From positions 1 to 39,722 of IMG/VR virus record IMGVR_UViG_2541047869_000003: a stretch of DNA of 39,722 nt. One strand, given 5' to 3'. A model generated the notes under the pieces. That model did no database searches. It was not told the origin of the DNA and saw nothing but the letters and a program-made list of their open reading frames with translations. This DNA is from a virus. Lineage: Duplodnaviria; Heunggongvirae; Uroviricota; Caudoviricetes. The position numbers and the translations under genes are program-made. This document shows, piece after piece, positions 4,192 through 36,194 of the stretch (the stretch's first letter is position 1; every line of letters begins with the position of its first letter).

Positions 4192-5133
4192 TTATTTATT
4201 CTTAAGTCTCACCCATGCGGAAAGATTCGTTGGTCCGTCTGGCTCATTAATATCAACATCTCGTGTGTGATTGATTAAAACGTCTCTCGCCATTCCGATA
4301 ACATACGAGAACTCATGACCGTAGTCGTAGCATCTGCCTGAATAGTTCGATTGAATTTGTTTTAGCGCCGGATACAGTTCGCGGAATAATGCCTGTGAGC
4401 GGTTGGCATAATCCCATAACCATACAAGGCTGTTTGCTTCTTTTGCAGAAAGCTCGTTTGCTTTCTTCTCTTGTTTGCCGATGAACTCACCTTCAAGCAC
4501 TACCCTGTGGATGTACTCTACTGCTTGCGGTATCTGAGATGCATCAAGCTCTTCAATACTTTCCACATTGAAACGCTGATGAATCATTGCATAAGCTTCT
4601 GGGTACATTAGATGCTTTTTGCTGACTAGCATATTTACAGCATCACGAAGCGGAGTCCTGTCATCAACAGATGTTTTCTTACGTGCATTTTCTGCCTTTC
4701 CCTTCGTCCAGTAGTCATGCAGCACAGTAAAGCATTCTTCCTGGTACTGAATCAGTTTATCGCGGATGTCAGCACGAACTTTCTCAGGGTTGATGCTGAA
4801 CAGCCATCCATTTAACTTCTTCAAAGGAAGGCAGAGTAGCTTACGAAGCTTCCCATCAGCGGCAATCATGTTCATATGAACACAGTTGAATTTGCTAATC
4901 TGCTTCATGAGTTTTGTTTGCTGCGTTGACCAGCTCATTCCAAGGTTTTCAACAATTGGCTTCATCGCAACATATGCAACTCCGGCAGCCATGGCGGTGA
5001 TAATTTGCTGACCGTTGAATGGTACGTAAGAGGTGTTCACTGCTTCTAAAATTGCTATACTATTCATGTTGGTTTTTCTCCACGGATTTACTGACAACCG
5101 AAGCCCTGACTGTTCCCGCAGTTGGGGCTTCAA
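4192..5133 (-). CDS. ant: Antirepressor Ant
   Basis: 313 aa directly downstream of arc in the P22 immI arrangement; N-terminus [68 protein letters not shown]. Confidence 0.85.
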
Positions 5134-5135
5134 CT

Positions 5136-22047: not shown

Positions 22048-22529
22048 AAACAGACTTCACGCTCAATCTCACGGCGAGTCATCAGCCCTTTCCATTGCTT
22101 ACCGCCAGCGTATGTCCAGCGCCGTAGCTGATCACATGCGCCTTTGATATCGCCCTGGTTTATTTTGCGAAGAAGCGTCGATGTTCTGAAATTTCCAGCA
22201 CCAACGTTGTAAACGAACGAGTAAAGAGCGCCGCGCGTTGTTTCCGGTATATCGACTTTGATGTACGGGTTAATTTGTCTGGCGACAGTGGCAAGGTCTT
22301 TATTCAGGAGGGCTTTGCATTCTGCTTCGGTATACGTTTTACCGAGCATAATGTCTTTTCCGGTATGCCCGTAACATACAGTCCATACACCAACGATATC
22401 TTTATATGGTATGTAGCTGACGCCTTCCAGACCATCGTTACCACTTGGGCCAGTGATTAACACAGATGCTATAGCAATAGCCCCGCCACCAATAGCCGCA
22501 GCAACGGCTTTTCGTAATGATGGAGGCAT
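22032..22529 (-). CDS. SAR endolysin (T4-lysozyme-like, glycoside hydrolase family 24)
   Basis: 165 aa; Gly/Ala-rich signal-anchor-release segment ([20 protein letters not shown]); E-x8-D-x5-T catalytic spacing; C-terminal [11 protein letters not shown] resembles P1 Lyz and phage 21 R. Confidence 0.85.
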
Positions 22530-22744
22530 TATTCACCTCTCGCAGCCTTTCTTCTGTCTTCTCTGATTTTGAAGTACAGATTTGTCAGATAGGTGAGAAA
22601 GCCCAACACAAGGCTTCCAAGCACCCCAATCGCAGCCCACTGTGATGGACTGACCTGATCCAACCACTGTAAAAACCAGTATCCCGCACTACCAGCGGAT
22701 GTTCCGTAGGCAATGCCAGTTGAGATTTTGTCCATTGATTTCAT
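22529..22744 (-). CDS. Pinholin (phage 21 S21-type class II holin), dual-start
   Basis: 71 aa [71 protein letters not shown]; two TMDs; Met1/Met4 dual start; ATGA overlap with the endolysin. Confidence 0.85.
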
Positions 22745-22861
22745 AGCAACGCCTCCGCCAGTAACGGATTGCGTAGTTCTTATATTGGGAATGGGAAAAA
22801 GAAGGCCGCAGCATAACTATCACTGATTAGTTCAGGATAGCCAGTGACTACGGCTAAGTTA

Positions 22862-22937
22862 TGGTGCTGGTTAACGGACTTGAACCGCCACCCATTCGCT
22901 TACAAGGCGACTGCTCTACCATTGGAGCTAAACCAGC
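22862..22937 (-). tRNA. tRNA, anticodon UGU (Thr) by manual folding
   Basis: 76 nt: 7/7 acceptor stem (GCTGGTT / AACCAGC), 4-bp D stem (GCTC / GAGC), anticodon loop CTTGTAA, T arm GGCGG-TTCAAGT-CCGTT, encoded 3' CCA. Confidence 0.6.
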
Positions 22938-22942
22938 ATGTT

Positions 22943-23017
22943 TGGCGGGACAGCGTGGACTCGAACCACGATAAGAAGGTTAACAGCCTTCCGTAATGAC
23001 CTTTATACGACTGACCC
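22943..23017 (-). tRNA. tRNA, anticodon GUU (Asn) by manual folding; may be degenerate
   Basis: 75 nt: acceptor stem 6/7, 5-bp anticodon stem GAAGG / CCTTC with loop CTGTTAA, T arm CGTGG-TTCGAGT-CCACG, encoded CCA; one mismatch in the D stem. Confidence 0.5.
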
Positions 23018-23020
23018 AAA

Positions 23021-23065
23021 TAAAAAAAAAGCCACCGTTGCAACTTAAGAGTCACTAACGGCAGC
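23021..23065 (-). terminator. tR'-like intrinsic terminator just downstream of Q
   Basis: Minus strand: ~9-bp stem (GCTGCCGTT ... AACGGTGGC, two G-U pairs) followed by T9. This is the lambda tR' position between Q and the late genes. Confidence 0.5.
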
Positions 23066-23076
23066 TTACCTTCTAA

Positions 23077-23601
23077 TTATGGCCAAATGGATAATTGCAT
23101 GTCAAGACTTTTAACAGCAACATGTTTAACTTTCTCAACACGTTTACGAATTTTGAAAGCATTTTGCATTGGTTGGTACAAAACAAATAATGATGCTTTC
23201 AGGATGTCGTCAATTTCATTTCTACAGGTTGCCAGTGAAGGTTTTCTCCATCCCTCGCCACCACGTCCACACATCTTGCGTGGCTTTGCAGTCGCGTGAT
23301 AGTAGGATGCAATTGCTCGCTTAGATGAACCATGAGCGTAGTAGCTGAGGAGGATGCCAAAGGCTTTCTTGTCAATGCACATGACGGAATCGACGACCTG
23401 AGAAATCAACATTCCATCATCATCATTGCACATTGGCCTTGTCATAATTCTTCCCGGCTCTACGCTCTCCATGAACTTCGCTATTACGCTGCTCATGCGC
23501 TTTTCCAAACGACCTGAATAAACCCATGCGCCCCACAGTTCAAGCCAGCCATTCAGCCACTCATGCTGTTCTTTGGTGAGGTTTAGTTCTCTTATGCCCA
23601 C
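23077..23601 (-). CDS. Q: Late-gene antiterminator Q (phage 21/82-type)
   Basis: 174 aa immediately upstream of tR', the tRNAs and the lysis cassette; Cys/His-containing C-terminal region; overlaps the upstream phosphatase gene. Confidence 0.8.
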
Positions 23602-34517: not shown

Positions 34518-34829
34518 ATGATGATTCTGACTCTGAATGATAAGCGTGAAATATCGCAAATAATCGCAAGTTTTACTGATGAAGATTACGAACGAATCAA
34601 CAGTGAAGTTGATCGCCTCTGCAAACGTTGCGACCCAATAAGCGAAATGCTTCGCTCATATAAACCAGATGAACACACTAAGGACGCTATCGACTGGCTG
34701 GAAGATGATGACTGTGACTATCAGGAAAAAGCCGCTGAATGGTTCTGGGATGCAATAACCAAAAGAGTTAAGGCTGAATATGCCTTCGCAATATTCAAAC
34801 GCAGACACATTTTTGGAGAAGCAGCATGA
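34518..34829 (+). CDS. Hypothetical acidic protein (103 aa) translationally coupled to recT
   Basis: ATGA overlap with the recT start; Asp/Glu-rich with a CKRCDP motif. Confidence 0.45.
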   Translation: MMILTLNDKREISQIIASFTDEDYERINSEVDRLCKRCDPISEMLRSYKPDEHTKDAIDWLEDDDCDYQEKAAEWFWDAITKRVKAEYAFAIFKRRHIFGEAA

Positions 34830-35728
34830 GCAATATCGTTGAATTCGTTAAACAGCAAGAGCAGTTATTCTGCGGAGCATTGACTGAACAGACGGTGACA
34901 TGGGCTAAGGAAAGCCAGTTTGCAATTCAGTATTTCCAGAAAAATGATTACCTGGCTAAAACGGCACTGGCAAATCCAACCAGCGCACAGAACGCCATCA
35001 TCAATGTTGCGGCGATCGGAATCACCTTAAACCCGGCCAGCAAACTTGCTTATCTAGTTCCGCGCGACGGCATGGTTTGCCTTGATATCAGCTATATGGG
35101 ATTACTTCACCTTGCACAGTCGACAGGATCAATTAAGTGGGGGCAATGTAAACTGGTGTACTCAAACGACACCTATGAATCAAACGGCCTTGATTCAGCG
35201 CCAACCCACAAATACAACGCATTTGGTGAGCGAGGCTCTATTGTTGGTGGTTATTGCACGGTTAAAACAGCAGATGGTGACTACCTGACTGAAGAAATGA
35301 GTCTGGCAGAAATTAAAGCTGTGGAAGCAACGAGCAAGGCAAAGAATGGACCGTGGAAGACATTCTGGGAAGAGATGGCGCGTAAAACAATAGTTAAACG
35401 CGCCAGCAAATACTGGCCTAAAGCACAGCGACTGGATAATGCCATTCACCTGCTTAACGAAGATGAGGGTATGCATCAGGAACCGGTTATGCCGCACAAA
35501 TCAGAGGAAGATATCCGCGAAGATGAACGGAAACGCCAGCAGGAAATAATGGAAAAAGCACAACTTCTTTGTGATGAAATGGCTCAGGCTGAAAACATGG
35601 ATGATTTGAAGAGATATTTTGCAGAAGCATATCGCCTGACATCTGGAATGAAATTGCAGCAGAACGTACAAGCCATTTACGCAGAATGCAAAGCGAAACT
35701 GGAGGTTACCAGTGAGCAAACTGTATGA
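34826..35728 (+). CDS. recT: RecT-family single-strand annealing protein
   Basis: 300 aa; GPWKTFWEEMARKTIVKRASKYWP matches the RecT motif (GPWVTHWEEMAKKTAIRRLFKYLP) from memory. Confidence 0.85.
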   Translation: MSNIVEFVKQQEQLFCGALTEQTVTWAKESQFAIQYFQKNDYLAKTALANPTSAQNAIINVAAIGITLNPASKLAYLVPRDGMVCLDISYMGLLHLAQSTGSIKWGQCKLVYSNDTYESNGLDSAPTHKYNAFGERGSIVGGYCTVKTADGDYLTEEMSLAEIKAVEATSKAKNGPWKTFWEEMARKTIVKRASKYWPKAQRLDNAIHLLNEDEGMHQEPVMPHKSEEDIREDERKRQQEIMEKAQLLCDEMAQAENMDDLKRYFAEAYRLTSGMKLQQNVQAIYAECKAKLEVTSEQTV

Positions 35729-36194
35729 AATTTCCAATGAATACGCAAAATTGATGGATTCAGATTTAGAACCAGAGATGATTGCTGACACAATAGAAGG
35801 CATGGAAGGAGAATTTACCGATAAAATAGAGCAACTTCTTTCCGTCATTAAAAATGAATCTGGTTATGCCGAACGCCTCAAGGAAGAGGCAAAGTCACTG
35901 AATGAGCGAGCCACAGTAATTCAAAATAAGATTGACAGCATTATGGCGTATATAGCGTCATCGCTTGAAATGGTTGGCAAGAAAAAGATTCGAGCAGGTA
36001 TTCACCAGGTAACAATCCGCAAACCGTCAGAAATTGTAGAAATCATCGACTCAAGCGCCCTTCCTCCTGAATACGTTGAGTTTGAAACGACAATTAAAGC
36101 CGACAAACTGGCAATCAAACACCAACTAAAAGCAGGAATAAATATCCCCGGTGCTCAACTCAAAGTTGGGAAACCTTCACTTCTTATCAAATAA
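35712..36194 (+). CDS. Siphovirus Gp157-like protein (recombinase-associated)
   Basis: 160 aa, overlaps the recT 3' end by 17 nt; N-terminal MSKLYEISNEYAKLMDSDLEPEMIADTIEGMEGEFTDKIEQLL resembles the Gp157 family as I recall it. Confidence 0.55.
   Translation: MSKLYEISNEYAKLMDSDLEPEMIADTIEGMEGEFTDKIEQLLSVIKNESGYAERLKEEAKSLNERATVIQNKIDSIMAYIASSLEMVGKKKIRAGIHQVTIRKPSEIVEIIDSSALPPEYVEFETTIKADKLAIKHQLKAGINIPGAQLKVGKPSLLIK

Follow-up and report, generated by a model that had tools for sequence, protein, structure and literature searches.

The module in which the late promoter pR′, the terminator tR′, a tRNA-Asn gene and a tRNA-Thr gene follow one another is already known: it is annotated in phage 21, Sf6, SfI and BTP1, the tRNA pair at this place also in SPN9CC, Kapi1 and many other phages, and the Sf6 annotation already reads "similar to phage 21." The description of SfI noted tandem Asn(GUU) and Thr(UGU) genes 3′ of the late antiterminator gene Q also in Sf6, ST64T, PS3 and phage 21 (PMC3636060), and in BTP1 the lytic operon begins directly after two tRNA genes (PMC7067206). 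P22 has no tRNAs, whereas some P22-like phages carry them at this position (PMC8022706). The tRNA-Thr(UGU) of phage 21, called tRNAThr21, rescues the toxicity of P2 OLD and resists cleavage of its anticodon stem (NAR 2025, PMC12445682). Here we analyzed such a locus in the IMG/VR virus record IMGVR_UViG_2541047869_000003, a stretch of 39,722 nucleotides (positions 1 to 39,722, hereafter the window) that represents a P22-like Escherichia coli phage whose nearest relatives are Kapi1 and CUS-3. It is likely that the window carries two functional tRNA genes in the 5′ leader of its late operon, in a phage 21-type module, and that they keep up the decoding of ACA and AAY codons late, with a tRNA-Thr resistant to OLD. 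As the module is already well described, the value of the present analysis lies in confirmation and context.

Two adjacent tRNA genes on the minus strand

A preliminary description of the window, made by folding the sequence by hand, had proposed two minus-strand tRNAs with anticodons UGU (Thr) and GUU (Asn) and encoded CCA ends. ARAGORN and Rfam agree with it on all of these points, and exactly two tRNA genes, adjacent to each other, were called by ARAGORN in the whole 39.7 kb:

22943-23017, minus strand: tRNA-Asn, anticodon GUU, 75 nt, discriminator G73, encoded CCA (ARAGORN and Rfam)
22938-22942, minus strand: 5-nt spacer AACAT between tRNA-Asn and tRNA-Thr
22862-22937, minus strand: tRNA-Thr, anticodon UGU, 76 nt, G1-C72, C2-G71, discriminator A73, encoded CCA (ARAGORN and Rfam)

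With the Rfam RF00005 model, whose gathering score is 29, tRNA-Thr obtained 60.1 bits (E = 1e-10) and tRNA-Asn 55.3 bits (E = 2e-9). Both have the features of this family, namely stems of 7, 4, 5 and 5 bp, a 7-nt anticodon loop, U33, a purine at position 37 and a GTTCRA T-loop. The anticodon loops read CUUGUAA and CUGUUAA, with A37 in both tRNAs. Departures from regular pairing are few: tRNA-Asn has the mismatches U4·U69 in the acceptor stem and U13·U22 in the D stem, and in tRNA-Thr a G27·A43 mismatch shortens the anticodon stem, from which the CNG motif is absent.

In E. coli the identity elements are G34, U35, U36 and G73 for asparaginyl-tRNA synthetase (AsnRS), and G1-C72, C2-G71, G35 and U36 for threonyl-tRNA synthetase (ThrRS). 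All of them are found in the sequences of the window tRNAs, which predicts that both can be charged. Neither gene was recently copied from the host, as tRNA-Asn is only 63% identical to host asnT and tRNA-Thr only 71% identical to host thrU. The minimum free energy fold of the window tRNA-Thr is not a cloverleaf: a competing fold, brought about by G at position 49, beats the cloverleaf by 4.1 kcal/mol, whereas with the phage 21 allele the margin is 0.6 kcal/mol. In genuine host tRNAs the cloverleaf likewise falls short, by 1.2 to 1.3 kcal/mol, and because they fail this test too we did not count its outcome against the function of tRNA-Thr.

Late promoter, pause element and terminator upstream of the pair

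Upstream of the tRNAs, all on the minus strand, the late control region comprises the following features:

23077-23601, minus strand: late antiterminator of the Q21 family, 174 aa (Pfam PF06530 Phage_antitermQ, E = 1.8e-25)
23076-23105, minus strand: late promoter pR′, TTGACA-18 nt-CATAAT, in agreement with the consensus at 11 of 12 positions; it overlaps the stop codon of Q
23081-23096, minus strand: putative Q-binding element (QBE) ATTATCCA / TTTGGCCA between -35 and -10, placed by alignment with the annotated phage 21 QBE
23062-23069, minus strand: predicted start of late transcription (about 23069), with the predicted sigma-dependent pause element TAAGCTG (23062-23068), both by homology to phage 21
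23022-23067, minus strand: intrinsic terminator tR′, a 17-pair hairpin with one unpaired base, followed by a T9 run (23022-23030)

Phage 21, Sf6 and HK75 each have an annotated pR′ with which this promoter lines up, and TAAGCTG is unchanged in all four aligned phages. The strong hairpin with a T9 tail that had been noticed directly upstream of the tRNAs, and called tR′-like, has a folding energy of -20.2 kcal/mol (positions 23029-23067; z = -4.4; none of 200 shuffles folds as well); it is identical base for base to the annotated tR′ of phage 21, and also to those of Sf6, L and HK75. A scan for consensus terminators gave nothing at tR′ because the hairpin lies outside the stem and loop limits of the scan, and folding and homology were therefore decisive. 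In transcription order, Q is preceded by a gene for a NinI-like phosphatase.

Phage 21 (OL657228, AJ237660) is thus matched closely. Gene order, the tR′ hairpin, TAAGCTG and tRNA-Asn are identical, tRNA-Thr agrees at 75 of 76 positions, a second hairpin 3′ of the tRNAs is near-identical (three substitutions), and the leader sequence of the pinholin gene is the same. The two differ in the terminator tail (T7 in phage 21, T9 in the window), in nucleotide 49 of tRNA-Thr (A in phage 21, G in the window), in the QBE and in the C-terminal part of Q. At the aligned site the window has ATTATCCA / TTTGGCCA and not the phage 21 sequence ATTGAGCA / AATGAGCA, and its Q is 85% identical to that of phage 21, with the differences in the C-terminal part. 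Because both the binding-site sequence and this part of the protein differ, the specificity of the window Q is probably distinct from, though related to, that of phage 21. A comparable difference in Q specificity has been argued for phage L (PMC8022706). The window is a phage 21-type module without phage 21's own regulatory specificity.

Several P22-like phages of the genus Lederbergvirus, Sf6, BTP1, SPN9CC and Kapi1, resemble the window in carrying tRNA-Asn and tRNA-Thr after the Q gene, which bears out the view that the arrangement exists in other lambdoid phages, phage 21 and SfI among them. Sf6 and BTP1 also have its type of Q and its promoter, with 96-98% identity at the DNA level. In contrast, the Q of Kapi1 belongs to the lambda family (PF03589) and is accompanied by a different promoter and terminator of its own, with the same tRNAs directly after the T-run; in both Sf6 and Kapi1 a lambda-S-type holin, not an S21 pinholin, lies downstream. 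The remark in the preliminary description that P22 is not known to carry tRNAs here was correct: neither ARAGORN nor the annotation of NC_002371 gives any, and the literature is explicit on this point (PMC8022706).

The position of the genes suggests that their expression depends on Q. RNA polymerase would start at pR′ (about 23069) and, in the absence of Q, halt some 40 to 48 nt further on, at tR′. Q loaded at the promoter-proximal pause would render the polymerase resistant to terminators, and read-through would then produce, in this order, tRNA-Asn, tRNA-Thr, the second hairpin, and the pinholin, endolysin and virion genes. The gap between the T9 run and the start of tRNA-Asn measures 4 nt, too short to hold a promoter between tR′ and the tRNA. 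Moreover, a scan of 22400-23600 detected no promoter-like site 3′ of pR′ on the minus strand, and the second site that it found on this strand sits inside Q, also upstream of tR′. With promoters upstream of tR′ as the sole route, the tRNAs would be transcribed by the Q-modified polymerase or by leak-through past tR′.

An improbable alternative is that the tRNAs are expressed independently of Q, from an unrecognized promoter or by constitutive read-through of tR′, and that they serve the lysogen as a form of lysogenic conversion. The tRNA genes of BTP1 were set apart from its prophage genes at more than 100 transcripts per million, which implies high expression in lysogen cultures, in an account that gives no numbers (PMC7067206). 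Stable tRNAs could indeed accumulate from weak read-through, and the authors of the phage L study left undecided whether its tRNAs are cut out of the late mRNA or possess a promoter of their own (PMC8022706). However, the 4-nt gap and the promoter scan argue against a separate promoter, and the high spontaneous induction of BTP1 could account for the signal in that phage (PMC7067206).

Conservation and decay of the two genes

The pair was found in at least 107 viral contigs, and tRNA-Asn copies identical to that of the window are present in 79 of these 107; the gene is also 100% identical in phage 21, Sf6, L and Kapi1. The spacer between the tRNAs reads AACAT in 54 of the contigs and AATAT in 50. 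The single difference between the tRNA-Thr genes of the window and phage 21, A49 to G, keeps the T-stem pair as G·U. The G49 allele is rare, with 3 IMG/VR contigs versus at least 120 that have A49, and it is matched at 100% identity in E. coli strain Q5. The anticodon arm of tRNA-Thr varies in only 1 of the 107 contigs, and a double change of G5-C68 to U-A occurs in 5.

We examined covariation in six distinct tRNA-Asn sequences from five genera, with homologs from a Klebsiella phage, Mixta, Phytobacter, Morganella and one more locus from a genome scan, L097, and in five tRNA-Thr sequences that included host thrU. For tRNA-Asn, five pairs had changed on both sides and yet remained paired, and 89.7% of the cells were paired; for tRNA-Thr these values were eight pairs and 96.2%. 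The covariation score was reached in none of 500 shuffles, for Asn and Thr alike, and slid registers gave 18-50% paired cells. U4·U69 and U13·U22 are unchanged in all six distinct Asn sequences. Because they are invariant across five genera while neighboring pairs covary, the alignments identify these mismatches as conserved features and not as decay. Thus, the one mismatch in each of the acceptor and D stems had been correctly noticed, but the suggestion that this tRNA may be partly degenerate is not supported.

These results bear on the possibility that the genes are decaying relics, either pseudo-tRNAs or remnants of tRNA-targeted integration or recombination, with at least tRNA-Asn nonfunctional. 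The non-Watson-Crick positions 4:69 and 13:22, the decay of the Thr gene in phages L and ST64T, a chimeric locus in Escherichia albertii and the absence of the pair from some relatives could all be read in this way. However, both tRNAs score about twice the Rfam threshold, the Asn mismatches are invariant where flanking pairs covary, tRNA-Asn is identical across phages with different neighbors, and the phage 21 tRNA-Thr is biologically active (PMC12445682). We therefore regard this possibility as largely refuted and extremely improbable. An origin as an attachment (att) site or integration remnant was likewise rejected: the tRNAs are full length with CCA and are not att half-sites, and the integrase gene, at 1-1155, is about 20 kb away.

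Decay is seen in relatives. The sequence at 1701-1772 of phage L (MW013502), annotated as "tRNA-Leu(TAA)," is a diverged homolog of tRNA-Thr, and the same holds for ST64T. In both phages the D and anticodon arms of this second tRNA are rearranged by indels and ARAGORN makes no call, so that it is probably a decayed copy. Beside it, the tRNA-Asn of phage L remains 100% identical to that of the window.

A different rearrangement is present in E. albertii NBRC 107761 (NZ_BBMY01000174, 5473-5706), where a Q21-type Q gene is followed by an identical tRNA-Asn, a chimeric tRNA-Thr and a host-like glyT (tRNA-Gly UCC). The 5′ half of the chimera is of the phage type and the remainder, from the anticodon stem on, is thrU-like; it is not called by ARAGORN. 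From its sequence, this locus looks as if a prophage tRNA had recombined with the thrU-tyrU-glyT operon of the host.

The anticodon arms and the OLD nuclease

The resistance of tRNAThr21 to OLD has been attributed jointly to C28U/G42A, by which the paired CNG motif is lost, and to the shortened anticodon stem, and the phage 21 allele decodes ACA in vivo (PMC12445682). The anticodon arm of the window tRNA-Thr is that of phage 21, with anticodon UGU, A37, UCG at 28-30, CGA at 40-42 and the G27·A43 mismatch. In contrast, host thrU has CUG/CAG at 28-30/40-42 and five stem pairs. The resistance is known for the phage 21 allele, from which the window tRNA-Thr differs by G49·U65 instead of A49-U65. 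K-12 has only one tRNA with anticodon UGU, tRNA-ThrU, and in a library screen the tested nucleases were in general suppressed by those phage tRNAs whose anticodon was the fitting one (PMC12445682). The window tRNA-Thr could thus replace the single host tRNA-ThrU when it is destroyed by the P2 prophage nuclease OLD.

A more speculative and rather doubtful extension is that tRNA-Asn may also be a nuclease-escape variant, such that the cassette would form a two-tRNA counter-defense unit against anticodon-stem nucleases of the OLD/Toprim type. A paired CNG motif together with A37 marks OLD substrates, and cleavage of host tRNA-Asn(GUU) was followed beside that of tRNA-ThrU (PMC12445682). Host asnT has this combination (CGG/CCG and A37), whereas the tRNA-Asn of E. 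coli, Salmonella and Shigella phages has AAG/CUU and no CNG. The 28:42 pair, at the same position as the one changed in tRNAThr21, is variable in tRNA-Asn: the window and Morganella have A-U, the Klebsiella phage and Phytobacter have C-G, and Mixta and locus L097 have U-A. If true, this reading would explain why tRNA-Asn is more strictly conserved than tRNA-Thr and why it was retained in L and ST64T. Some Asn homologs retain the CNG motif, however, and rescue from OLD toxicity in the screen came from Thr(UGU) tRNAs alone (PMC12445682); both observations weigh against it.

We also looked in the early-left operon for a RecBCD inhibitor that might act as an OLD trigger; the search yielded nothing beyond a RecT-like annealase and a protein resembling Mu Gam, and no link to OLD is claimed.

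Codon usage of the late genes

The codon usage of the phage late genes was compared with that of a 39-gene sample of K-12. ACA occurs at 18.5 per 1000 codons in the late genes versus 5.2 in the sample (odds ratio 3.6, p = 6e-18), which places it at rank 2-3 among 61 codons, and AAT at 24.5 versus 12.5 per 1000, an approximately 2-fold difference (p = 2e-9). Asn codons overall amount to 49 versus 35 per 1000. Of the codons read by the two tRNAs, ACA and AAU are over-used in the late genes, but AAC is not enriched relative to the sample. The codons AGA, AGG, TCA, GGA, ATA and GCA are similarly over-used, without a matching phage tRNA. An ACA bias has also been reported for SfI (PMC3636060), and 24 of the 25 Asn codons in the coat gene of phage L are AAC (PMC8022706). 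Codon supply is a benefit compatible with carriage of the pair.

These data raise the possibility that the tRNAs act purely in codon compensation, supplying ACA and AAU/AAC decoding for faster late protein synthesis, with nuclease resistance being incidental. The roughly 3.5-fold enrichment of ACA and 2-fold enrichment of AAT, the ACA bias of SfI, the AAC-rich coat gene of phage L and the lone UGU tRNA of K-12 are all in its favor. However, AGA, AGG, TCA, ATA and GGA are equally or more enriched with no tRNA to read them, and AAC is not enriched. Furthermore, the anticodon arm of tRNA-Thr holds both of the OLD-resistance changes and is essentially invariant in about 107 contigs and in the Klebsiella homolog, and the screen found nuclease suppression by phage tRNAs with fitting anticodons to be general (PMC12445682). 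We thus consider compensation alone to be a possible but fairly unlikely explanation.

Distribution of the cassette and its downstream neighbors

The tRNA pair was detected at a coverage of at least 80% in 416 of 5,426 complete E. coli genomes (about 8%), a search in which host tRNA genes gave no match. Its surroundings vary. Upstream of the pair, 87 of the 107 viral contigs have a Q of the Q21 family and 19 one of the lambda family; downstream of it, 58 have a holin of the lambda-S type and 29 one of the S21 type. In contrast to its neighbors, the frame of the cassette is nearly constant, with a run of at least five T within 20 nt upstream of tRNA-Asn in 106 contigs and the 5′ arm of the second hairpin (GCCGTAG) 3′ of tRNA-Thr in 105. 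Its retention beside both families of Q and both families of holin suggests that selection acts on the tRNAs themselves. In enterobacterial prophages the pair is thus a widespread cassette that can move between contexts.

A pattern scan of species-representative genomes, based on the Asn variable loop and T-arm, gave 92 loci, of which about 8 were true homologs and the rest mostly unrelated tRNAs of distant phyla, so that it said little about taxonomic spread. The pair is also present, at 98-99% identity, on short contigs from two metagenome-assembled genomes, one assigned to Segatella copri (L020, Bacteroidota) and one to Collinsella sp. (L074, Actinomycetota); most likely these contigs are DNA of enterobacterial phages that was binned wrongly.

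Larger sets of tRNAs occur at the same place. Klebsiella phage ST16-OXA48phi5.2 (1501-1820) differs from the window in having a cluster of Asn, Phe, Thr and Arg(tct) tRNAs 3′ of a different Q of 269 aa; its Asn and Thr members are 91% and 93% identical to those of the window and are true homologs. This four-tRNA cassette indicates that the late-leader slot accumulates tRNAs. The ileZ, argN and argO genes of the Stx2 phage 933W, which serve rare Ile and Arg codons, presumably occupy the same slot 3′ of Q; we take them not to be homologous to the window pair, and both the tRNA sets and Q differ.

On the other side, the pair is followed by the second hairpin and the lysis genes, which places it between Q and the pinholin gene as initially described:

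22796-22854, minus strand: second conserved hairpin (22805-22854) followed by CUUCUUUUU (22796-22804)
22529-22744, minus strand: S21-type pinholin/antiholin, 71 aa (Pfam PF04971 "Bacteriophage P21 holin S," E = 8.6e-36), the first protein-coding gene of the late operon; the non-coding DNA ahead of it nearly matches that of phage 21
22032-22529, minus strand: endolysin, 165 aa (Pfam PF00959, E = 7.3e-47)

The Rz gene comes next in the lysis genes, after those for the pinholin and the lysozyme-family endolysin. The latter is a putative signal-arrest-release (SAR) endolysin, a label that it receives from a position matching that of the annotated phage 21 R gene and not from protein alignment. The 117-nt stretch 22745-22861, which is mostly the second hairpin, folds with -37.9 kcal/mol (z = -4.1). 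The sequence of this hairpin is conserved in phage 21, Sf6, HK75, Kapi1 and lambda, where it lies unannotated at 44946-45004; no compensatory changes were found in it among these five phages. It may be a weak terminator, or an element that stabilizes or processes the 5′ end of the late mRNA. Of these copies, only those of the window and phage 21 continue into a U-rich tail.

The constancy of this frame brings up a role of the tRNAs as RNA-processing punctuation: cuts by RNase P and RNase E would free the pR′ leader and set the 5′ end and stability of the late mRNA, the second hairpin would perhaps be protective, and decoding would be secondary. The location of the cassette between T-run and hairpin whatever the Q or holin type, and the conservation of the hairpin even in lambda and HK75, are in keeping with such a role. 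However, the late operons of lambda, HK75 and P22 are of the same kind and work with no tRNAs in them, and punctuation would not need conserved anticodons, synthetase identity elements or a nuclease-resistant arm. We therefore deem it distinctly improbable as the main function.

In HK75 (NC_016160, 1377-1590), which has a window-type Q, tR′ and second hairpin, the tRNAs are replaced by an unrelated segment of about 200 nt. This segment ends in a T-arm-like sequence, GCCGGTTCGATTCCGGC. Checked with Rfam as a possible tRNA remnant, it gave only a partial, weak match to tmRNA (12.7 bits versus a gathering score of 47; E = 0.0045).

Genome context

The virion genes of the window are P22-like and not those of phage 21. 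A sar antisense RNA at 5068-5135 on the plus strand (Rfam RF00262, 95.6 bits) confirms that the secondary immunity region (immI) is an ant/arc region of the P22 type. The early-left operon encodes the RecT-like annealase (34826-35728, plus strand) and the Mu Gam-like end-protection protein (35712-36194, plus strand), whereas P22 has Erf/Abc instead.

Proposed role of the tRNA pair

We favor the combination of a nuclease-resistant ACA decoder with codon supply, rank pure codon compensation second, and note that the two are compatible. Once transcribed with the late leader, the tRNAs would be excised by host RNase P and 3′-end nucleases, and as their CCA ends are encoded no addition would be needed. 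Host AsnRS and ThrRS would then charge them. The over-use of ACA (about 3.5-fold) and AAU (2-fold) would make the extra tRNAs useful even without a nuclease. For the window phage, this processing, the charging and the resulting benefit are predictions from the locus and its described relatives.

A number of observations weigh against this proposal. Rescue from OLD was partial and was obtained with plasmid-expressed tRNA outside phage infection (PMC12445682), and the rare G49 of the window allele favors the competing fold over the cloverleaf by 4.1 kcal/mol. The lack of AAC enrichment and the other over-used codons count here as well, and the authors of the SfI study saw no obvious Asn bias, the codon being written as CAA (PMC3636060). 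The implied expression of the BTP1 tRNAs in lysogen cultures means that control may be leaky and not strictly dependent on Q. Relatives manage without the pair (P22, HK75) or let the Thr gene decay (L, ST64T). Several host Asn tRNA genes exist, so that extra Asn supply may not be needed.

The analysis fixes the start of the late operon for annotation, in the order pR′, tR′, two tRNAs, second hairpin and S21 lysis cassette, and identifies a phage 21-type block inside a P22-like genome. Because its Thr member has demonstrated activity against P2 OLD, in the phage 21 allele, the presence of the cassette may help to forecast which phages of the lambdoid or P22-like kind can grow on P2-type lysogens.

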